Virus record (IMG/VR): IMGVR_UViG_2029527006_000008
Location: 106,168 to 126,167 of that record
Reading direction: 5' to 3' (one strand)
From: an uncultured virus (IMG/VR IMGVR_UViG_2029527006_000008)
Taxonomy: Duplodnaviria; Heunggongvirae; Uroviricota; Caudoviricetes
DNA: 20,000 bases
Shown piece by piece: positions 7,204-20,000 of this stretch. A program made the translations under genes and the position numbers. Every line of letters starts with the position of its first letter. The first letter of the stretch is position 1. Below the pieces are notes generated by a model. The model ran no database searches, was not told the origin of the DNA, and worked only from the letters and a program-made list of their open reading frames with translations.

Positions 7204-9456
7204 ATGGCTTTTAAAGACGTCAAAGCTGGAGTTCGCAACACCGGCAACCTTATTAAGCAGGCGATGGACCTGACCAAGAACCAGTCGTTCGCTGCCCTGA
7301 GCGGCGTTGAGTCATTCAACGATGCACAGCAACAGTTCGGCACAATCTTCGGTGGCGAAGGCTTCAATACCTTCCAGAAGGGCATGACTGATAACCTGTC
7401 CCACGGCGGCTTCGACGCAGCTAAAGCAGCGATCGGTCGTAACAACATCAACGAAATCGCGGCGTCTGTCTTCACCACCGACGTGCTGAGCGACATCGCG
7501 AAACGTCAGGGTCTGGAATCTTTCACCCTGGCACAGTTCCCGGGCCAGAGCATGGAAACCAAAGCGGTTAACATCGTTCTGAACACCCAAACTCGTCTGC
7601 AGACCAAAGCTGCTGAAGAGCTGTACAAAACCATCTCCGTGCGTTACGAAGATGAAGGTGTGAAACTGACCGTGCGTGCTGCCGGCGTAGGTTCTTATGT
7701 TTCCGGTGCTTCTGCATGGGAAAGCATGACCGAACTGACTCCGATCTTCGGCATCCTGCGTAATGGCGACATCTTCAAAGATGACGTACTGCGCGTGTGG
7801 CCGGTTCTGCCTGCTGATGCAGACGACGAAAACGCACAGCTGTTCATCGACGCGAGCATCAAAGCGCCGGTTGATCAGGAATACCCTACCGGTGACGCAT
7901 ACGGTCGTCAGGATCACCTGACTCAGATGCTGGCCGTTCCTGGCGTAGTTAACAACCTGCTGGGCCTGTGCACCGCACCTGGTCAGCGTCCGTGGACCGA
8001 TACCGACGATATCGAATCAGCTTCTATCCGTATTCTGGAGCTGGGCTTCGCTGGTAAACTGAACGGTAAAGACATCCAGGCATTCGTGCCGACCGAGTCT
8101 ATGACCAACATCAACATGTCTCCGACCTCTGTTGGCCAGAACTCGAACGACCGTGATCTCGACATCACGCTGCGTCACCTGCCGGTTACCGCGCTGGTTG
8201 ACAAAGACGGTAAGTCTGTGAAGGCGCTGTTCCAGGCGTTCTATGACAAAGGCCTCGAGCCGAACCTGAACGTGCGCATGACCGCTCGTTATAACCGTCA
8301 GAGCTACCGTCTGGAGCTGACCACTGGTAAAGTTACCATTGAGTCCCTGACCGATCTGAACGACAACAACAAGCGTATCACGCACAGCAGCGCAACTGAA
8401 GATCAGAAAGCCCTGCTGAACGCGCTGAAAGGCGGCCTGGTGAATGCGGCGACTCCGTCCATGAACCTGACCAACGCCTCTAACGGCAACTTCGGTTACC
8501 GTCTGGAAGTGTTTGACACCAGCAAAGAACTGACCACTCGTCGTCAGGATCCGATCTCTGTCAAATACCCGGTCCGTCCGGAAGATGTGAACAAAGAAGC
8601 GCTGGACGACGCTGTTAGCTACATGGGTGTTACCATCCAGACTAACTGCTCGAAGAAAGCCTTCGAAACTGCGTACAAACATCTGGACTACCTCACCTCT
8701 ATCGATGGTGCGCCGGTTGTTGACAACGAAAACGGCGGTAACGATCTGCCGGGTCGTATGTACGTTAAAGCGTCTACCGTTCACCGTTCGTTCCGTATTC
8801 AGGATCACATCAGTTCTCCTGAAAACATCGACGTGTTCGATAACGTCTGCTCCCTGCTGCTGACTGAAATCCAGGACATCACTGCCGCGCTGGCATTCAA
8901 ATCCGGCATCGCCGCGATCAACGAATACAGCGGTATCGCGAAGACTAAATGGTCTGTGATCGTTCACCAGAACCTCGAGCGCTTCCTGATGCGTTCTGGC
9001 GACGCGCGTATCACCGCGTCTGAAGATTTCAACATCGTTGCGACTAACTTCGACAGCATGATCGGTAAGATCCTGATCGTTCCTCAGAACGACTCGACTG
9101 AAGATCGCATCAACCCGCTCGGCGGCATCGGTGTTAACGTTGCTAAAGAGAACGTCGTTCTGCACGGCCAGGTAACTCGTGGCAACCAGGACTTCGGCGT
9201 GATGATGACCATGCCGTGCTACCTGCACTGGAACCTGAACGTAATCGTTGGCTCTCTGGTCATCGAAGACGCTGCAGACTTCCTGGGCGACGCTGGCGTG
9301 TTCTTCAAACTGGGCGGCGTTAAAGTTAGCTCTGCTCCGGGCACTGCTGTTAACACCAACAGCAATGGCGCTGCAACTGGTCCTTCTGAAGTGAAGATCG
9401 TCAATGACGCTACTTCTCCGGTTGTGACTCAGGCTGTACCTGCCTCGGGAAACTGA
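7204..9456 (+). CDS. Major capsid protein precursor (phiKZ gp120-like)
   Basis: 750 aa, the size expected for phiKZ-type MCPs. Extreme high-expression codon bias (CTG, CGT, GGT/GGC, AAC, ATC). N-terminal propeptide with G-x-E motifs. Sits between the helicase and the nvRNAP beta gene, and is followed by a strong terminator. Confidence 0.88.
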   Translation: MAFKDVKAGVRNTGNLIKQAMDLTKNQSFAALSGVESFNDAQQQFGTIFGGEGFNTFQKGMTDNLSHGGFDAAKAAIGRNNINEIAASVFTTDVLSDIAKRQGLESFTLAQFPGQSMETKAVNIVLNTQTRLQTKAAEELYKTISVRYEDEGVKLTVRAAGVGSYVSGASAWESMTELTPIFGILRNGDIFKDDVLRVWPVLPADADDENAQLFIDASIKAPVDQEYPTGDAYGRQDHLTQMLAVPGVVNNLLGLCTAPGQRPWTDTDDIESASIRILELGFAGKLNGKDIQAFVPTESMTNINMSPTSVGQNSNDRDLDITLRHLPVTALVDKDGKSVKALFQAFYDKGLEPNLNVRMTARYNRQSYRLELTTGKVTIESLTDLNDNNKRITHSSATEDQKALLNALKGGLVNAATPSMNLTNASNGNFGYRLEVFDTSKELTTRRQDPISVKYPVRPEDVNKEALDDAVSYMGVTIQTNCSKKAFETAYKHLDYLTSIDGAPVVDNENGGNDLPGRMYVKASTVHRSFRIQDHISSPENIDVFDNVCSLLLTEIQDITAALAFKSGIAAINEYSGIAKTKWSVIVHQNLERFLMRSGDARITASEDFNIVATNFDSMIGKILIVPQNDSTEDRINPLGGIGVNVAKENVVLHGQVTRGNQDFGVMMTMPCYLHWNLNVIVGSLVIEDAADFLGDAGVFFKLGGVKVSSAPGTAVNTNSNGAATGPSEVKIVNDATSPVVTQAVPASGN

Positions 9457-9519
9457 TCATCCTCCCGTCAACCTTTTACGGTGAACTTGATCAGCAGGCT
9501 TACCTAGGATGATGGGAGG
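9447..9519 (+). other. Putative -1 programmed ribosomal frameshift signal at the MCP 3' end
   Basis: In-frame slippery heptamer G_GGA_AAC (9447-9453) directly before TGA. 7-nt spacer, then stem CCTCCCGTCA (9461-9470)/TGATGGGAGG (9510-9519). The -1 frame is open for 19 codons, to TGA at 9510-9512. Confidence 0.6.
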
Positions 9520-9544
9520 CCGCCCCCGACTGTTGTACTAAGTT

Positions 9545-9595
9545 AATAACTACTACTCCCACCCGGAAGGGTTGGGAGTAGTATTATTTATGTTT
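9545..9595 (+). terminator. Rho-independent terminator after MCP
   Basis: TACTACTCCCACCC-GGAA-GGG(T)TGGGAGTAGTA (9551-9583) with a GNRA loop and one bulge, followed by a T-rich tail. Confidence 0.85.
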
Positions 9596-9603
9596 GCCAT
9601 TTA

Positions 9604-9624
9604 TTTTTCAGACCTACATTATTA
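9604..9624 (+). promoter_or_regulatory. Candidate early (virion-RNAP) promoter
   Basis: TTTCA-gacc-TACATTAT (9606-9622) resembles the phiKZ early consensus (TTTaA...TATATTAC). It lies right after the MCP terminator and upstream of the unit containing the nvRNAP subunit. Confidence 0.5.
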
Positions 9625-9683
9625 GACCGTATACACTCAAAATGATCGACGGATCAGAGAACCAAATTACAGGGCCCTGAAAA

Positions 9684-10694
9684 ATGAACCGATGCTTTAA
9701 CTTAGACTACAAGATATTCAATCCTAAACGCGTTCCTCTTCAAATCCGGTACAAGGGGGGAATTAGTTATGAACTCCACGACAACTGGGATGACAGGGGA
9801 GAGCGGGTTTATATTGAGTTTCGTATTGATGGGGTCGATGTGCGCAAGCTACGGGTTAATCCTGAAGAAGCACTGACCAATTTCGATCGTACTGTGATGA
9901 CCAGCTTAAAGGCTCGTATCGACGACTTAATTAAAAGTCATCCGCACGACGATCTAATGTTAGCTAACCAAAACATTTTCTTTGTAGTAAACATTACGAA
10001 TCAAGAACTCGGTCGTAAGAATTCAGTACACAGCGAGTTGTTGGGTTTCACTCTTTACCTGGGCAAGTTCGATCGTGAAGTACATGCGTTGAACACGCCC
10101 AGCGAAGCGTTAGACAATATTGCCGATACAGCCAACGTCAGCAATAGCGTTAACGCATCCATTAAGTTAATTGACCCAGAGCGCCGTTTCAGCAATCTGT
10201 GGACAAACGTTTTTGGTCGTGCGGTAAAGGTGGATGCAGTGAGGGTGTCAGACCAAACGCCAGGTCTGTACTTGTTTTGTGAGGGCGAGGATGTCGACGG
10301 GATTCAGTGTTATTTCACGTTCGACGAAATTGATAATAAAATACTACAGCAATATGGTATATTCATGAGTGAACAAGATGCACTATTGGGAGGTAACACT
10401 GACGAGCTAATCCGCACTCGCAAGAGTCTGGATAACGTCAAGAAAGAAAACCGTGACCTAATGACAATGCTGTCTACCCAACGCACACGCATTGGTGAGT
10501 TAATCCAACGAGTAGCGACCGTTACAAATGAAGTTGCTGTACTTAAAGCTGAAGTAACCAAGAAGGATCTGGAACAGAAGTTCTTCGAGAAGTTAGAGAA
10601 GAAGAAAGCAGGCATGGATACGTTGGGAGGATACGTTAAGAATGCTTCGATTGTTTGTAGCGCGTTGCTGAGTATTTACAAAACAGTGACATGA
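9684..10694 (+). CDS. Hypothetical protein with C-terminal coiled coil (phiKZ gp122 position)
   Basis: 336 aa. Heptad-like stretch at about aa 240-308 followed by a moderately hydrophobic C-terminus. Lies between the MCP and nvRNAP beta genes. Confidence 0.7.
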   Translation: MNRCFNLDYKIFNPKRVPLQIRYKGGISYELHDNWDDRGERVYIEFRIDGVDVRKLRVNPEEALTNFDRTVMTSLKARIDDLIKSHPHDDLMLANQNIFFVVNITNQELGRKNSVHSELLGFTLYLGKFDREVHALNTPSEALDNIADTANVSNSVNASIKLIDPERRFSNLWTNVFGRAVKVDAVRVSDQTPGLYLFCEGEDVDGIQCYFTFDEIDNKILQQYGIFMSEQDALLGGNTDELIRTRKSLDNVKKENRDLMTMLSTQRTRIGELIQRVATVTNEVAVLKAEVTKKDLEQKFFEKLEKKKAGMDTLGGYVKNASIVCSALLSIYKTVT

Positions 10695-10710
10695 CACAAA
10701 TGGAGGGTTG

Positions 10711-11163
10711 ATGCAACCGAAACTGGTAGAGGCAGTTGATGCCACAATGCCGAGGTTCAACAAGTCAATTGTTGAAGGGTTCCATCTCCGAGAGTTTGAG
10801 GGCGGATATCGTTATCTTAACTATATCTATCGATTAATCTTCAAAGACGTTGAAAAGAAAGGCGTGATCTTTGATGGCATCAGTCGAATGAAGCCAAAGG
10901 AATATATTACATTCCTGCGTAACCGTCAACCTAAGGTTTACGACACGCACAAAGAGAGCTACTATCCTGTCACCGTCAATTTCTCCTGGCGCGATCCCAA
11001 GAGCGGTGAAGTTAAACCGTTCCCGCCGATTGTCACGATGCTGCTGTATTGTGATCGTTATGGCGATGTGTGGATCCGCGATAGTCAGTACTCGTTGCAG
11101 ATGGTTATGGCTGAACGTGGCCTGAGTGTAACGAAGAAAAGTCTATCTTCTTTAAGGTGTTGA
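10711..11163 (+). CDS. Non-virion RNA polymerase beta N-terminal subunit (phiKZ gp123-like), 5' fragment, interrupted by a frameshift
   Basis: SD GGAGG at 10702-10706 and ATG at 10711. N-terminus MPRFNKSIVEGF, and LLYCDRYGDVWIRDSQYSLQMV corresponds to the RpoB 'P-MT--G-F-ING-ERV' region. The frame terminates at 11163 while the -1 frame is already open from 11115. Confidence 0.65.
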   Translation: MQPKLVEAVDATMPRFNKSIVEGFHLREFEGGYRYLNYIYRLIFKDVEKKGVIFDGISRMKPKEYITFLRNRQPKVYDTHKESYYPVTVNFSWRDPKSGEVKPFPPIVTMLLYCDRYGDVWIRDSQYSLQMVMAERGLSVTKKSLSSLRC

Positions 11164-12389
11164 GTTTCAAGACAAAGATCGGTGCGGAATTCTTCCGTTT
11201 CGACAAGGTACATACCGAGCTGAGCAATCTGCCACGTTCTACCATTGACTTGAACTTAGCCGCCAACCGTTTTTATAGCCCCAGCGAGTCCCGAGCCATT
11301 ACCAGTAAGAAAACCCCGTTCCCTCTGTTGAGCTGGTATATCTTCGGTAACTTTGGATTCAGTGAGGCCATGCGTCTTTATGGCGAATGCGAGTATGAAA
11401 TTGGGCCGGTAGAAGTATTGACAAAACGTTGTCTTCCAAAAGATCGCTGGGAGATATTTACGCGTAGTGGCAGCTCCAACAACAAGTTCCTCGGTGACTT
11501 TATTCCGTTGGATTTGGGCATTGCCTTGCGTAATAAAAACGAAAAGCGTAAAGAGCTGTCTAGCATGGGCGTTCAGTATGCCGCCGCACTGTTGTTCGTG
11601 ATCTCGTGCATGCCGTCTTATTTTGAGATGGATGACATTGATGACAAGAACTACTGGCGATTACTGATTGGGCGCTGCTCGGTGAAGCCGGGTGACCCAA
11701 ATGATTATGTGCTGCGTCTGATGGACGAGCATTTTGATTCCATGAATGATTTGCTGGAAGAAGATTCCATTCGTAAGTTTGCAAGCCAATCGGTTTACGT
11801 TAAAGATATGTTTGAGCTCTTCAACTATATCATCGCGAACCGCAGTGAGATTGTGCAGACCACTGACCGTGGTAGCGCGTTGAACAAAGAGCTGGCAAGC
11901 ATGGAGTTTACCTTCGACGGTTTGAGCACGCTGGCAAACCAGTTCAAGCACTTCATCAAGAACAACTCTGAACTCAGTTATCAGAAAGTCAAGAACTTCC
12001 TCACAAACAGTAGCATTAAGCTTCGTTCTATCGACAATGCACGTTTGGCAAATATGATCTTGGAACCGACTCCAACGGACAACCCGTTCTCGGAATACAT
12101 GCTTGGCGTAATGGCTCAGCACAAAGTGTTCACGGGTAAAAGGAAGCAGGCTTCAGGTGACTTTGACGTGCACGACACGGCTAACCTCACAAACGCGACC
12201 ATGCCCTTTATTTTCAGTTACCAACGTGTAACCAAACCAGACCCCGATGCCAGAGGCTTCTTAGCCCCTTGTGTGTATACCATTAGTGGTAACCTCACTG
12301 GTATTCGTCCGGAGCGGATTCCGTTGGCTGGGGCCACGGAGACGCGTTTGAAAATTAGGGAGTCGCGTACGTACACTCAACAGGATTAA
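11157..12389 (+). CDS. Non-virion RNA polymerase beta N-terminal subunit (phiKZ gp123-like), 3' fragment
   Basis: 410-aa ORF lacking a well-placed SD. PLLSWYIFGNFGFSEA, YWRLLIGR and C-terminal TKPDPDARGFLAPCV are as I recall them in gp123-family proteins. Joined to the upstream fragment it gives about 559 aa. Synteny two genes after the MCP. Confidence 0.7.
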   Translation: MLSFKTKIGAEFFRFDKVHTELSNLPRSTIDLNLAANRFYSPSESRAITSKKTPFPLLSWYIFGNFGFSEAMRLYGECEYEIGPVEVLTKRCLPKDRWEIFTRSGSSNNKFLGDFIPLDLGIALRNKNEKRKELSSMGVQYAAALLFVISCMPSYFEMDDIDDKNYWRLLIGRCSVKPGDPNDYVLRLMDEHFDSMNDLLEEDSIRKFASQSVYVKDMFELFNYIIANRSEIVQTTDRGSALNKELASMEFTFDGLSTLANQFKHFIKNNSELSYQKVKNFLTNSSIKLRSIDNARLANMILEPTPTDNPFSEYMLGVMAQHKVFTGKRKQASGDFDVHDTANLTNATMPFIFSYQRVTKPDPDARGFLAPCVYTISGNLTGIRPERIPLAGATETRLKIRESRTYTQQD

Positions 12390-14830: not shown

Positions 14831-17800
14831 TTAACCAAACGGATTGCTTTCACCTTTCTTGCTATCAGAGAGTTTTGTTGCATCGGCACTGACTGCAGCG
14901 TCATCTTCTGGTTTAGTTTCAGCGTTCTCGTCTTCTAGCGGCACATCATCCTTGTTTTCATCGTCTGGCTTATTCTCATCATCCGGTGCGTTATCCAGGT
15001 TCTGATCATCAGCATTTTCATCGACGTTGAGATCCGACGTGTCGTTGTCGTCTAACGGAGGTGCGTCGTCAGTAGGCGGTGTTTCGCCATTGTCTGTTGG
15101 TGTAGCAAATGGGTCGGCTGGCGGAGTTTCCTCTTCTTGACTTTGACCAGTCTTGGTTTGGAATTTCTCCAGCGCATTCTCGATCTTCTTGCTGAGCGTG
15201 CCGAACGACTTCGTACGTTCTTCAAGATCACGAATAGCCATGTTGCCCAGGAACGCGTAAAGCGAACTGTTCTGCGTGGCCACGCTTTCCACAATGCTCG
15301 CCATACCACCACCAGATGGATCGTCAACAGCATCGTCAAACGGAGACGGAATGTTCAAGAGTTTGTGCGCCTTCTGATACAGGTACGCCTTGACCATGCC
15401 CTCAACTTGTTCTTTGCTGTATTCGCCCGAGATGTTCAACGTTTCAGTTGCTTTCTCAATCATGGCAACTTTACCGTTGGCTTCCCACCACTGGTTAACC
15501 AAATCACCCGCGGTGCTCAGACCCTCTTTGAGCTTAGCCGCCTGTTCCATTACCGCAGGAGCCGGCAGTGAACACTCAATGTTGTTCAGGAAGTCTTCCA
15601 GGATAGTTTCGATCTTCTCGGCTTCGTTTGCACCTTCGATCTCGATATCTTTATTGTCTGGCTTCCAGAGGTTCTTGTGGGCGTTGATGGTTTGGATAAG
15701 AGACAACAGCAGAGGCTGATTTACGCGCACGTATTTACGCTGACGCTCAATCACAAAGTCCGCAATCTGTTCCTGCCAGTTCAAGGCCTGGTTGTACACC
15801 AGTCGGTGTTCATTCAGTGCTTCAATCTGGAAGTTGTTGTTTTCATCCGCAACGTCCAACCAGCTACGTGGCAGCATGAAGTAGTTGGCGATCTTGTTCA
15901 ACACTTCATTGCGACTATCGGTATCCACACGGCGGAAGTGCTGCTTCTCCTGAGGCTCCACCGTGATGTTAGGAACCGGCAAGTACGGGTTTTCACCCGC
16001 ATCCACTTCCAACGTCAAGGAGAGTTCACGGAACGCATCAACCAGCACCGGAATACTCATCTGGTTTGTTGCCAGCACGTTATAGAAACGCGGGTTAGCA
16101 CGGAAGAAGACTTCACGAGCCATTGCAATCGTACGCTCTGGGTTCGGGTCATCTTTGTTCAGCACAATACGCATCTTGTTAGAGCTTTGTGCGGCTTCCA
16201 TGTTGGCCATGGCATCTGCCAGATCCATTGCTGCTAAGCGCGCAATGTGCATCTTTGCTGCTTGCGTCAGCGACTGACCCACACCCAGTGCATTGTATTT
16301 AAACGCTGCATAAGTTACGCATTCACCCGGAACATACAGAGCACGGATACCCTGACCACGGAACATACGTGCCAGGAAGATCTTGTTGGTTTCCTCATCG
16401 AGGTCCACAGAGATCGTACCAGAACGACCCGAAATCACTGACTTCATAAAGGATTCAATAATGATGCCCTTACTTAACTCAGCAAACTCGCTCATGTCGA
16501 AGTCACAGTCTTTGCCCTGCTGAATCTGCTTCAAGTTATCAATCAGGGAGTTAGAGCTACCCTGCTGGTTCTTGTTGCCGATGCTGTCAGACTGTTTCTT
16601 GGAGCTCTGGTAATACTGGAAATCCGTAGTCGGGTTCAGGAACTCACCGGTGTCAGGATCAAACAGAATTACGTAGTCTTTCTTCTTACGCACATTCCCG
16701 TTGATATGAATCGGAATGATAGCCGCAGAAGGAACATGCCAGTCAATAGGCGTGCCGTAGTTCTGGACACCAAAATCAGTATCCTGTTTCACAAACTGCA
16801 TGAACTGGTTAGCCGCGCGACGATGAGGGAAGATCTCGTTTTGCAGACTGTTCAGCGTGCCCATGGACATGTTGGTGGTTTTGGACTTCGGCTGCTGTGG
16901 ACGCTTGGCCGATTTGTCGCCAGGCTTGGTAACTGTTTTGTCACGTTCATCTTCCGGCGCATCCTGATTACTCAGCGTCTTTTGAATCAGTGATGCAAAG
17001 TCCTCGTTGCCTGCGTAGAACTGTTCATTGAACTTCTTACGCTTCTCCGCCAACAGGTTAGTCGCCAGTACTGCCGGGTTATCCGTAAGGGTGATATCGA
17101 AACCAGTACCTTCGAGAGGTGTGCCTTTCAGAATATCAAACTCTGGCTGACTGGAGGTTTTAACGTTTTGCATGGAACCCATGACAGATTCCAAACCCGC
17201 CACGTTAAACACATTATCAGACTTATCATCCGCAGGACGCACGTAGTTACCGACGTTCATCACGCGCAGTTTCTTCGTGGTCCGGTCAAAGGTAAAGTTA
17301 CCCTGCGACTGTTGGTAGGTGTGAGCAGCTTTCAGATCTTCACTACCTGAACGCTCTACCACTTCCATGCCGTTGATCAAATAATCCAAGGAAATGCGGC
17401 TCAGCGTCAGTGTGGCATAGCTACCGGTGTTCCAGAGCATGTCATCAATCTGTTCGCGCAGTTCGTCTTCGATTTTATAGTCGTTTGTAAAGTAATCTTT
17501 CCAAACCTTTAATAATGCGGTATGCAACGGCGTATTTTTGTAACGAGATGCCCGCGTCGAGTAGTCCAGGATATTTTTCTGTTTCCCGTTGGGATACAGC
17601 AGCAACGAAGACCAGATCAGCTCAGCACGGTCGATATAGGGCGTAATTGCACGCAGGTCATGCGCGGCATTAATGTTGTTAGCAATGATGTTGCTTATGC
17701 GTTCGAGCTTGTGCGGCATAATCGCATTACGCTCATTTCCCGCAGTGAGTTCGTTTGCTTCCGGGGAGCGTCCGTTCTTTGGTACAGCATTGCGAAGCGT

Positions 17801-17896
17801 TGCTGCGACCAGGGGGTTAACCGATTTCACCTTATCGCGCAAGCGAGAAAGCTGTGCGCGGGTGTTGCCTCTGGTCATATCTCGACTTTGGACCAT
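14831..17896 (-). CDS. Portal protein (phiKZ gp129-like), 1021 aa
   Basis: ATG at 17896 with SD AAGAGG is preferred to the TTG at 17920. Large - strand gene divergent from a gp128-like gene. Motifs TGSYATL, IIPIHING, IFLARMF...LYVP...YAAFKYNALGVGQSL and a helical stem region are as I recall them for jumbo-phage portals. Long acidic C-terminal tail. Confidence 0.75.
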   Translation of the reverse strand: MVQSRDMTRGNTRAQLSRLRDKVKSVNPLVAATLRNAVPKNGRSPEANELTAGNERNAIMPHKLERISNIIANNINAAHDLRAITPYIDRAELIWSSLLLYPNGKQKNILDYSTRASRYKNTPLHTALLKVWKDYFTNDYKIEDELREQIDDMLWNTGSYATLTLSRISLDYLINGMEVVERSGSEDLKAAHTYQQSQGNFTFDRTTKKLRVMNVGNYVRPADDKSDNVFNVAGLESVMGSMQNVKTSSQPEFDILKGTPLEGTGFDITLTDNPAVLATNLLAEKRKKFNEQFYAGNEDFASLIQKTLSNQDAPEDERDKTVTKPGDKSAKRPQQPKSKTTNMSMGTLNSLQNEIFPHRRAANQFMQFVKQDTDFGVQNYGTPIDWHVPSAAIIPIHINGNVRKKKDYVILFDPDTGEFLNPTTDFQYYQSSKKQSDSIGNKNQQGSSNSLIDNLKQIQQGKDCDFDMSEFAELSKGIIIESFMKSVISGRSGTISVDLDEETNKIFLARMFRGQGIRALYVPGECVTYAAFKYNALGVGQSLTQAAKMHIARLAAMDLADAMANMEAAQSSNKMRIVLNKDDPNPERTIAMAREVFFRANPRFYNVLATNQMSIPVLVDAFRELSLTLEVDAGENPYLPVPNITVEPQEKQHFRRVDTDSRNEVLNKIANYFMLPRSWLDVADENNNFQIEALNEHRLVYNQALNWQEQIADFVIERQRKYVRVNQPLLLSLIQTINAHKNLWKPDNKDIEIEGANEAEKIETILEDFLNNIECSLPAPAVMEQAAKLKEGLSTAGDLVNQWWEANGKVAMIEKATETLNISGEYSKEQVEGMVKAYLYQKAHKLLNIPSPFDDAVDDPSGGGMASIVESVATQNSSLYAFLGNMAIRDLEERTKSFGTLSKKIENALEKFQTKTGQSQEEETPPADPFATPTDNGETPPTDDAPPLDDNDTSDLNVDENADDQNLDNAPDDENKPDDENKDDVPLEDENAETKPEDDAAVSADATKLSDSKKGESNPFG

Positions 17897-17921
17897 TATT
17901 AGCCTCTTTTTTGGAAACAAA

Positions 17922-20000
17922 ATGAATAGAATAGATCTCGATAATTTCTATTCCGACACTTTCCAACTCACTCGAACAATGGTGGTAAAGATAGAAGCCA
18001 TTGCAGAGCGTGAGAATCAAGTGTTGGAAAAGGCCGGACACACCGTTCTTAATGACAAGCGCACTTGGCGCTATTACATGAATTTAAACGGGGATTACCA
18101 CGAGACTGATGAAGTCATGACGGTGATTTCCTTGGACACTGGTGAAGAGATACCGTTTACCAAAGAGACGATGGCTCAGCATCTTCTCACCTACCGTCAG
18201 TATCTAAAGAGCGGCGACCTGTATAAGCGCCTGACTGAAACCTATGACGGACAGACCGTTTTAATTAACGGAATTCTGTTTCCGATTACATATGATGTTT
18301 CTATTGCCGCCCCGAACTATAAGATTCTTCGCTATAATGAGAGTCTGGTTCTGTGGAATGAAGAACAGCTGATTCCTCAGGTGCAGCGCTGGATTAACGG
18401 CAACGCTCCTGCAATGTTCGAAAACGAATACCACGTCACTGAAGACCTCATGCTTCACCAGATGGTGGTAGAGCTTTATGCCGGCATTACTCAATGTATA
18501 CACCTGACGCGTTTCCAGGCTATTAAGACTCGACACGCGCATGACTTCTATATTTGGAGTCACATTGATTCATTCGGTGAGTTTTCTGTTTATAAGAACT
18601 CACTGAACCAAGAACAGGTGATGTGGTTACACCGCAACATTGAGTGGATCAACAACAACGCCGGTAAAGAGTTTACGTTTGATAAACTCATGGAAAAGCT
18701 GCTGACTATGCGGAAGATTCCCATCGCGAAATATGAGATGGTGTTGAACACGCAGAAACAGTTAGAGGATCTGGTGCCCACGCCTCAGTGGAAGCGAACT
18801 CAGTTAAACATGAACGAAGACAAGCAAATCACGCCGGTCTACTTCAACACTGAGAAGCTCATTGAGAAAGAACGCCCGATGGCGGTGGACAACACCCTGA
18901 TGACCTCTATCTATCAGGAAGAAGCAAACTTCGAAGGCACGTACAGTTTACACAATGACTTGCCGACCAAGGTGCTGGAATCTGAGATGGCGGACTACAC
19001 CAACCGTCACAGCGACACCATGATGACCGTGGTGTTTAACCAGTGGATCTACCTGGCAGGTAAAGGCGTCTATCAGGTTAACATGGCGGTGGTGAATCCC
19101 AAAGATGGTCGTCTGCTGCGCCTGGATGCCAAGGATGCATTTACCCTGTGGCGTTACATCACGCGCCTGGCTGCTGGTCACCAACTGGAAACCATTGAAA
19201 ACGCTTTTTATCACAACGTGATGCGGTTAACCCCGCCCACTGTGAAAGAGTTACGTCGCGTGGGATTAGGAAGCAAATACATCACTGACGCCGTAGCTAA
19301 CAGCATCCGCGATCAGTTTGTTGACATTGTTTCCGTGGGGTCGTCAGAAGAACTGCTAAACGTTTCTAAGAGCATCTATATTGCGATGTGGAAGCATCGT
19401 AAGCTCTACAGCTCCTACGGTGATCAAATCACTCATGCTGCTGTTAAGAACGCTACGTCGCTGATGTACGAAACCGGTGAGATCTCGTTGGTAGACGATC
19501 ACAGTTATCTGCGCTTCTTGCAGAAGTATGCGCTGGACTTTGACGACTACAACTACGAAGAGCTTACTAATCTGGCTTGGGTGATCTTTAAAACCTTTAC
19601 TGGTTGGGATCTCAACAACAACCCATCACTGCGCAGCATTCAGAACGATCTCGTTGATCTCATGATGAAGCTGAGCTCTTATACCGTCCACACCATTAAA
19701 ACCATGGATGACGGTACGGATGTGATTGAGTTGTTGTCGCAGAACAGCATGGGTGATTCCGCCTATTTAGGCTTGGGTCATCAGCTTGAAGCCGATCTCT
19801 CTAATGTTCAGCTCAAGCTCAACCATGCATTAACGTTAACAGCGAAACCCGAGTTAGAAGTTCGTCTTCCTGACACTACCCATCCCAAGCTTGATCAAGC
19901 GTCAGCGATTATCACCGCACGCTTCCGCGATACCACACATCTGCGGTTGGATCACAGCAAAGACATTACTCCGCTTTCTGCTCTGCGTATTCCAGATACC
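17922..20000 (+). CDS. Virion structural protein (phiKZ gp128-like, putative baseplate), 3'-truncated by the window edge
   Basis: Absent from the ORF track because no stop was found in the window. Manual translation: MNRIDLDNFYSDTFQLTRTMVVKIEAIAERENQVLEKAGHTVLNDKRTWRYYMNLNGDYHETDEVMTVISLDTGEEIPFTKE... The TWxYYxNLxGxYH..D..M.V.SLDT.E.I.FTKE motif is typical of this family. The same frame is open at the window end (...ALRIPDT); at least 693 codons. Confidence 0.8.
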   Translation, partial: MNRIDLDNFYSDTFQLTRTMVVKIEAIAERENQVLEKAGHTVLNDKRTWRYYMNLNGDYHETDEVMTVISLDTGEEIPFTKETMAQHLLTYRQYLKSGDLYKRLTETYDGQTVLINGILFPITYDVSIAAPNYKILRYNESLVLWNEEQLIPQVQRWINGNAPAMFENEYHVTEDLMLHQMVVELYAGITQCIHLTRFQAIKTRHAHDFYIWSHIDSFGEFSVYKNSLNQEQVMWLHRNIEWINNNAGKEFTFDKLMEKLLTMRKIPIAKYEMVLNTQKQLEDLVPTPQWKRTQLNMNEDKQITPVYFNTEKLIEKERPMAVDNTLMTSIYQEEANFEGTYSLHNDLPTKVLESEMADYTNRHSDTMMTVVFNQWIYLAGKGVYQVNMAVVNPKDGRLLRLDAKDAFTLWRYITRLAAGHQLETIENAFYHNVMRLTPPTVKELRRVGLGSKYITDAVANSIRDQFVDIVSVGSSEELLNVSKSIYIAMWKHRKLYSSYGDQITHAAVKNATSLMYETGEISLVDDHSYLRFLQKYALDFDDYNYEELTNLAWVIFKTFTGWDLNNNPSLRSIQNDLVDLMMKLSSYTVHTIKTMDDGTDVIELLSQNSMGDSAYLGLGHQLEADLSNVQLKLNHALTLTAKPELEVRLPDTTHPKLDQASAIITARFRDTTHLRLDHSKDITPLSALRIPDT

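Follow-up and report, generated by a model that had tools for sequence, protein, structure and literature searches.

In phage lambda, a -1 slip on the heptamer G_GGA_AAG of G/G-T sets a fixed low ratio of the longer protein in virion assembly, and in phage Q-beta a leaky UGA gives rise to A1, a minor extended coat protein. Minor C-terminally extended coat proteins are also made by T7 (gene 10A/10B) and T3 (gene 10), through a -1 slip near the 3′ end of the capsid gene, as described in PMC5009743. The same source describes frameshift-extended major head and tail proteins in Lactobacillus phage A2 and in the Listeria phages A118/A500 (-1) and PSA (+1). The locus reported here lies in a stretch of 20,000 nucleotides (hereafter the window), the last 20 kb of a 126,167-bp IMG/VR virus contig (IMGVR_UViG_2029527006_000008), which is estimated to be 54% complete and ends inside a baseplate wedge gene. 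Comparison of capsid-gene 3′ ends leads us to regard the very end of its major capsid gene as, very probably, a programmed -1 ribosomal frameshift cassette that would make a minor, tagged isoform of the capsid protein. The gene and the parts of the cassette are as follows.

7204..9456, plus strand: major capsid protein gene, 0 frame, 750 aa (ORF list, PF25620, PHROG 3231)
9447..9453, plus strand: slippery heptamer G_GGA_AAC in X_XXY_YYZ phase, with GGA in the P site and AAC in the A site (sequence)
9454..9456, plus strand: 0-frame stop TGA, adjoining the heptamer (sequence)
9453..9512, plus strand: -1-frame extension, 19 codons translating as LIILPSTFYGELDQQAYLG, then stop TGA at 9510-9512 (translation)
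9461..9519, plus strand: candidate stimulatory hairpin, an outer 10-bp stem (9461-9470 / 9510-9519) with inner helices (folding)

The product of ORF 7204-9456 matched Pfam PF25620 (E 1.2e-118, residues 90-695) with 397.4 bits, above the curated cut-off of 27, and is a PhiKZ-type major capsid protein by this match. The PhiKZ capsid family was the sole family matched in this search, and the product also matched PHROG 3231 (major head protein). The gene ends TCG GGA AAC TGA (9445-9456), so that G_GGA_AAC fills its last two sense codons. Read in the -1 frame, positions 9462-9488 encode LPSTFYGEL, here called the tag. The 10-bp stem, one of whose pairs is G-U, forms the outer helix in the fold of lowest energy and starts 7 nt past the heptamer, and the hairpin covers nearly the whole extension ORF. 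The locus thus combined a phased heptamer, a structure about 5-9 nt downstream and an open -1 frame which, as set out below, is under protein-level selection. An earlier note on this DNA had proposed a -1 frameshift here, and the heptamer, its phase, the stem, the -1 reading and a downstream terminator were all found where it had placed them. Phased heptamers occurred at 91 of the 45,149 codon positions (0.2%) of the phage's own 126-kb contig (C1), and only 3 of 131 contig ORFs of at least 150 aa had one in the last four codon positions. Two other long, putative ORFs had terminal phased heptamers: C1:102845-103846, with A_AAA_AAG one codon before the stop and a -1 frame open for 30 codons, and C1:51617-52132, with T_TTT_TTC at the stop and a -1 frame open for 24 codons.

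Relatives were gathered by protein-guided searches from viral contigs, metagenome contigs and named phages. Loci whose capsid proteins were at least 44% identical to that of the window were considered in-clade, and 29 of them were examined (17, plus the two named phages EL and FishSpeaker, plus Joad, MIZ-Pa99 and HHBS47_1, plus 7). Duplicates of counted loci (L012-L014, L017 and L047), three loci reported to be 100% identical to the L025 capsid protein (L050-L052), a contig fragment without the capsid gene 3′ end (L054) and Pseudomonas phage vB_PQ1 (L046, PQ516283.1), in which the capsid gene is annotated in six pieces, were left out. The vB_PQ1 record has 488 features in 184 kb with many short ORFs, which suggests many indel errors.

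A phased X_XXA_AAY heptamer was found in the last two to four codons of 28 of the 29 in-clade capsid genes. By batch, it was present in 17 of 17 loci, in EL and FishSpeaker among 14 named phages, in Joad, MIZ-Pa99 and HHBS47_1, and in 6 of 7 further loci. The cultured phages that carry it include EL, RisingSun, Joad and FishSpeaker. The forms detected were G_GGA_AAC, C_CCA_AAC, C_CCA_AAT and A_AAA_AAC, X being G, C or A. The wobble base of the preceding codon was always the matching X (TCG or CCG before GGA; GAC, GTC, CCC or AAC before CCA; GCA before AAA). Judging from these codons, selection on the capsid protein alone would not produce such a match. The 0-frame stop followed the heptamer by 0-3 codons in the relatives, and by 0-1 codon in most lineages.

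The other 12 of the 14 named phages and phiKZ, all distant, lacked both the tag motif and, within their last 30 codons, a phased heptamer. The earlier note had spoken of phiKZ-like capsids in general, and this has to be narrowed: the cassette belongs to the EL/RisingSun-related clade and is missing from phiKZ and these 12 other distant relatives. Among outgroup capsid proteins lacking the cassette, 8 of 12 end in a hydrophobic residue and proline (VP, IP or LP) before the stop. These were found among L031-L041 (Miami, VP4B, PDCC-1, Kc263, pEt-SU, PS1, AH04 and D6), and the ending may be a different, constitutive C-terminal feature. At the nucleotide level no match to the cassette was found in named phages, the best blastn matches ending inside the capsid body.

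Within the clade, conservation was centred on the cassette. Positions 9445-9521 were 95-97% identical to close relatives (about 90% aa identity), while the flanks were 69-71% (the tail before) and 56-59% (the spacer after). The C-terminal tail of the capsid protein is variable and of low complexity; against the same relatives, identity was 69-71% over 9345-9444 and 91-92% over 9145-9344. Tag, heptamer and hairpin were all retained across lineages whose capsid proteins are just 44-49% identical.

The 85 nt after the shift site folded better than dinucleotide shuffles in all 14 lineages, with z from -2.1 to -6.8. Each lineage was folded alone and not as an alignment-wide consensus, since loop lengths differed too much. 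Folds read by eye placed the start of the main helix about 5-8 nt after the shift site in the 14 lineages, with arm sequences unrelated between them. The stem predicted in the earlier note was therefore matched by a hairpin of different sequence at the same spacing in every lineage. The EL helix starts at this usual distance from the heptamer even though the 0-frame stop comes three codons later and falls inside the helix; the hairpin is therefore positioned with respect to the heptamer.

This placement bears on a mechanism in which a single tRNA slips. With the last sense codon in the P site and the stop codon in an A site that holds no tRNA, the P-site tRNA alone would re-pair one base back, the 0-frame stop would be the main pause, and the first half of the heptamer would be dispensable. 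The closeness of the stop to the heptamer in most lineages is in line with this, as is the sequence CCA AAC CCG/CCT stop of several lineages, which puts a C_CCN site at the stop. A phased heptamer is absent from the last 20 codons of a single in-clade lineage (L058, IMG/VR contig G005; L058:2881-2949), which reads CCA GTA ACC CCG TAA and keeps C_CCG directly before the stop and the tag in the -1 frame. However, EL and its relatives have two to three sense codons between heptamer and stop, all seven heptamer positions covary in 28 of the 29 loci, and the hairpin keeps its spacing from the heptamer and not from the stop. In addition, C_CCA and C_CCG tetramers gave just 1.8-3.6x background in E. 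coli even with a strong pseudoknot, in the data given in PMC4066793. We consider a single-tRNA slip unlikely for the clade. In L058 the slip site may have moved to the C_CCG at the stop, or the peptide may be reached by another route.

The coding signature of the -1 frame was compared in 12 distinct sequences. The -1 ORF was 12-20 codons long in every lineage, and its peptide followed the pattern [LIV]-[PS]-x-[TA]-x-Y-G-x-L, summarised as the motif [LIV]-P-S/D-T-x-Y-G-x-L or, more loosely, [LIV]-P-x-T-x-Y-G-x-L. All 12 sequences have an invariant TAYGG in the -1 phase, 17, 20, 23 or 26 nt from the heptamer, and length changes are therefore whole codons. None of the nine third codon positions was invariant, against four of the nine second positions, and third positions varied most. 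Leucine was encoded by CTT, CTG, CTA, TTA and TTG. Synonymous and non-synonymous codon-pair differences numbered 186 and 249 in the -1 frame, compared with 40 and 338, and 54 and 312, in the other two frames. These patterns indicate that the extension peptide is under purifying selection. The uniformly short ORF with its conserved peptide, together with the phased heptamers and the equally spaced hairpins, bears out the frameshift reading of the earlier note.

Such a signature would not be expected if the region acted only as an RNA element of the 3′ UTR (a stabiliser, a processing site or a protein-binding site), the -1 peptide never being made and its conservation being a by-product. A strong conserved hairpin does follow the stop directly in all 14 lineages, close relatives share a well-conserved intergenic region over its full length, terminator and promoter included, and the heptamer is weak in E. 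coli. Nevertheless, variation falls on the third positions of the -1 frame, lengths change in multiples of three, leucine codons switch between CTN and TTR, and changes in the heptamer go together with changes in the wobble base before it. Ordinary ORFs elsewhere in these phage genomes encode the peptide as well, and this is confined to genomes bearing the cassette. Finally, the hairpin arms are not conserved in sequence between lineages, and no Rfam family was matched at up to E 1 over 9200-9800. We therefore find an RNA-only role very unlikely.

The sequence upstream of the heptamer speaks to how the peptide is reached. A -1-frame stop lies directly before the heptamer in six sequences (RisingSun, Joad, two metagenome lineages, FishSpeaker and L049), leaving two open codons (Pro, Lys) before the extension and no start codon. 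In these the peptide therefore has no separate start and is reachable only by a shift within a few codons. The window has 15 open -1-frame codons upstream, none of which translates as Met, and no suitably placed Shine-Dalgarno-like sequence was seen there by eye. A free micro-peptide started from its own -1-frame codon and not fused to the capsid protein would fit the ATG of L058, two codons before the tag, but given the other sequences its probability is close to nil. Reading on in the 0 frame past the window TGA gave no conserved peptide and met stops in relatives, unlike readthrough of the Q-beta type.

The tag was not confined to the capsid gene. A back-translated P-x-T-x-Y-G-x-L pattern gave 20 matches in five in-clade genomes, compared with 4 for a reversed-pattern control, and a single match, containing a stop codon, in five outgroup genomes. 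The in-clade matches sit at the C-terminal ends of real ORFs. One carrier is the wedge gene at the end of the window.

17673..20000, plus strand: baseplate wedge gene (phiKZ gp128 homologue), cut by the end of the window and contig (PHROG 3222, PDB match)

ORF 17673-19999 matched PHIKZ128 (PDB 9xqs_C) at E 7e-79 over residues 84-679, and phiKZ gp128 is described as a baseplate wedge protein in PMC13250141. A near-identical contig (997 of 1000 overlapping positions identical) extends the wedge ORF by 85 residues beyond the window, and these last 85 residues hold three tandem tags, PPTYYGEL, PDTYYGEL and PDTYYGIL. The wedge copies resemble the capsid tag down to the preceding hydrophobic residues. 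Two to four tandem copies end the wedge protein in five genomes, and RisingSun gp89 has one. The capsid tag also tracks the wedge copies of its own genome, both EL proteins having PANYGRL and those of the window, G004 and G005 having TYYG.

The second carrier is a virion protein family of about 200 residues together with a 583-aa virion paralogue (RisingSun gp205, gp206 and gp197). The family and the paralogue carry the tag once, near the C-terminus, and in the family it accounts for 6 of the 21 invariant columns in an alignment of 21 sequences (P184, T186, D187, Y188, G189 and L191), with I183 nearly invariant. The predicted model of this family had a pLDDT of 92, and about 80 in the tag segment, which lacked regular secondary structure. 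Foldseek returned nothing at E 0.001 or better with this model, whereas VIA-align gave one standing match, to a chain of the outer baseplate of phiKZ, 9xqd_0 (Z 6.1 and rmsd 4.2 Å over 127 aligned positions; next Z 3.8). This match is suggestive and we treat it as a lead only. No sequence match to the tag-bearing RisingSun gp206, gp198 and gp197 was found among solved structures, and a profile comparison of the family with phiKZ gp143 showed no relationship. The phage's own contig, about 54% complete and ending inside the wedge gene, had no other tag carrier except one internal PPTRYGYL.

Mimicry of the chimallin C-terminus by the capsid tag was also considered and rejected. The shell protein of the contig ends ...WDAYGVIG, but its RisingSun, EL and FishSpeaker homologues end quite differently.

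The sharing of the tag is relevant to the suggestion in the earlier note that the extension could be the remnant of a longer domain. It might be a decaying, functionless leftover of an older domain once fed by frameshifting, as the extension is very short (12-20 residues) and residues past the tag are not conserved. However, a longer -1 ORF was found in no lineage, the peptide is short and under purifying selection throughout, and tag, heptamer and hairpin persist between widely diverged capsid proteins. The tag also follows the baseplate copies of the same genome. We regard decay as highly improbable. The other suggestion made there, a docking tag, is strengthened by the presence of the motif at the ends of baseplate proteins and further virion proteins that these genomes encode.

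We suggest that the frameshift cassette would work as follows. Most ribosomes would stop at TGA 9454-9456 and release the 750-aa capsid protein, and a minority would be held up by the hairpin starting 7 nt downstream. On G_GGA_AAC the held ribosomes would move back by one base, with both tRNAs most likely shifting (GGA to GGG, AAC to AAA), and would read 19 more codons, giving a 769-aa isoform. The heptamer is weak, and the isoform is therefore probably a small share of the product. A capsid of many hundreds of subunits would still carry several tagged subunits per head. The added peptide would cap the C-terminal tail, which is variable and probably flexible. Because the motif is common to the capsid extension, the baseplate wedge and other virion proteins, docking is its most likely role: a partner of the baseplate motif may also bind a subset of capsid subunits, or the same assembly step may join them. 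The sequences themselves show the signals with their conservation, the coding signature of the -1 frame and the sharing of the motif; that ribosomes slip here, how often they do so and what the tag does are what we infer.

Several observations weigh against this account. The window hairpin by itself was just modestly better than shuffles (-30.1 kcal/mol, z -2.44, 5 of 200 shuffles as good; for the 85 nt after the shift site, z -2.23, 9 of 300 as good), and a hairpin at the 3′ end of an mRNA could also serve stability. The case is carried by the comparative data and not by this hairpin on its own. L058 lacks the heptamer and has its own -1-frame ATG. The few changes inside the extension among close relatives are non-synonymous, though conservative (Q to S, F to Y). 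G_GG.A_AA.C and A_AA.A_AA.C are described in PMC4066793 as low-efficiency motifs in E. coli, although according to the same source IS elements use both for -1 frameshifting, and the A_AAG form was not seen in the clade. The earlier note had called the arrangement classic; the arrangement is indeed present, but its efficiency was overstated, A_AAC being a weak A-site motif in E. coli. No receptor for the tag was identified. Lastly, the term 'frameshift' is absent from the main text of the RisingSun LC-MS/MS paper (PMC6034870). A trans-frame peptide would not be in a standard mass spectrometry search database, and only the 0-frame capsid gene is annotated in the six records opened (EL, RisingSun, Joad, FishSpeaker, MIZ-Pa99 and HHBS47_1). 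In the literature covered, which left out most subscription journals, no description was found of frameshifting or readthrough in the capsid gene of these jumbo phages.

The frameshift cassette is followed by a possible transcript end.

~9551..9592, plus strand: terminator-like hairpin with a U-rich tail (fold -25.5 kcal/mol, z -4.84)

The fold has one unpaired base in its stem and was 95-98% conserved in close relatives. A simple terminator scanner did not flag a plus-strand hairpin at ~9551-9592, which became apparent on folding. This terminator-like hairpin would end the capsid transcript after the cassette. Look-alikes of window 9530-9595 were found elsewhere in the contig at C1:67993-68043 and C1:29670-29735 (83% and 76% identical), and it is therefore a repeated terminator module.

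The contig also carries a nuclear-shell (chimallin) gene at C1:52715-54697 (660 aa, PHROG 4795, E 1.5e-77), and the phage is therefore a nucleus-forming jumbo phage. A scan of the window found no tRNA genes. Two overlapping ORFs together make up a polymerase gene (PHROG 2943): 10708-11163 (151 aa) matches positions 1-141 of the profile, and 11157-12389 (410 aa), which lies in the -1 frame relative to it, matches positions 150-534. In RisingSun and phiKZ the homologue is annotated as one undivided gene. A frameshift, a genuine split of the gene or an error of assembly could each account for the difference.

A different arrangement was observed in the phiKZ clade. The capsid genes of phiKZ, Psa21 and seven viral-contig relatives (64-100% capsid identity) all end in TGA (9 of 9). 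Past this stop the same frame continues for 26-28 sense codons, which encode conserved tandem R-Y-L-E-D/N-G-like units with synonymous changes, while the other two frames have stops in most of the nine. The loci are L117:12510-12593 (phiKZ NC_004629.1, after gp120), L042:2926-3012 (Psa21) and L123-L129. An in-frame ORF past the stop is therefore conserved in this clade, and it looks like a candidate for UGA readthrough, by which a capsid subunit tagged in a like manner would be made. The 177-aa phiKZ gp143 (L122:4694-5227), annotated as a virion structural protein, ends with three tandem R-Y-L-E-N-G units, and its Psa21 homologue (L119) likewise ends with such units. The back-translated R-Y-L-E-N-G pattern gave three matches in phiKZ (control 0) and one in Psa21. 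One preprint cites another preprint as naming gp143 a lysis regulator. No paper on capsid readthrough in the phiKZ clade was found in the literature search.

We raise, tentatively, the possibility that nucleus-forming jumbo phages as a family tag a small share of their capsid subunits with a copy of their own tail or baseplate tag, by two recoding routes. The clade of EL, RisingSun and the window would use -1 frameshifting (P-x-T-x-Y-G-x-L), and the phiKZ clade UGA readthrough (R-Y-L-E-D/N-G, also ending gp143). If so, head and tail would share one docking system, with the same adaptor or fibre on both or one assembly or trafficking factor holding both, and the use of two routes would show that the dose of tagged subunits is selected and not just their presence. 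For annotation, the capsid gene of a whole jumbo-phage clade, including EL, RisingSun, Joad and FishSpeaker, would encode a second virion protein. Reuse of a short motif on wedge and virion proteins would offer a concrete, testable way into the question of how accessory parts are recruited by large capsids and baseplates. A weak A_AAY site kept across deep divergence would be a natural case for the tuning of low-rate frameshifting in bacteria. In practical terms, tag and tether would mark a probable permissive display site on these capsids.

Among the known systems, the capsid cassette can be compared with gene 10 of T7 and T3, which has the same gene position and logic, a slip near the 3′ end of the capsid gene being the shared feature. 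The capsid here, however, belongs to PF25620 and is unrelated at the sequence level, and no homology of the extension was found, though without a direct comparison to T7/T3 gene 10. The T7 site is given in PMC5009743 as a G_GU-type motif and the T3 extension as an Ig-like domain, whereas the jumbo-phage site is X_XXA_AAY and the extension has 12-20 residues with a motif shared with the baseplate. By this analogy we consider the cassette functionally like T7 gene 10 and do not file it as a relative. The A2, A118/A500 and PSA systems are alike in recoding the end of major virion genes to give a second, longer structural species; the A2 extension is Ig-like, and none of the A2 and Listeria extensions is described in PMC5009743 as a motif reused in the virion. 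Transposase sites of the IS3 and IS1 families have identical heptamers (G_GG.A_AA.C or A_AA.A_AA.C) and a downstream structure, as presented in PMC4066793. Those sites fuse two long ORFs into a transposase, unlike the structural protein, very short extension and adjoining 0-frame stop found here. The lambda heptamer ends in A_AAG, an efficient bacterial A-site motif, compared with A_AAC in the window. Lambda G-T acts in tail assembly and its product is not in the virion. Q-beta A1 is the nearest analogue for the phiKZ-clade candidate and does not apply to the window, where the 0 frame past the TGA is not conserved. The frameshift mechanism proposed for the capsid gene is thus an ordinary one, and what is new is its payload, a short motif reused on the baseplate.

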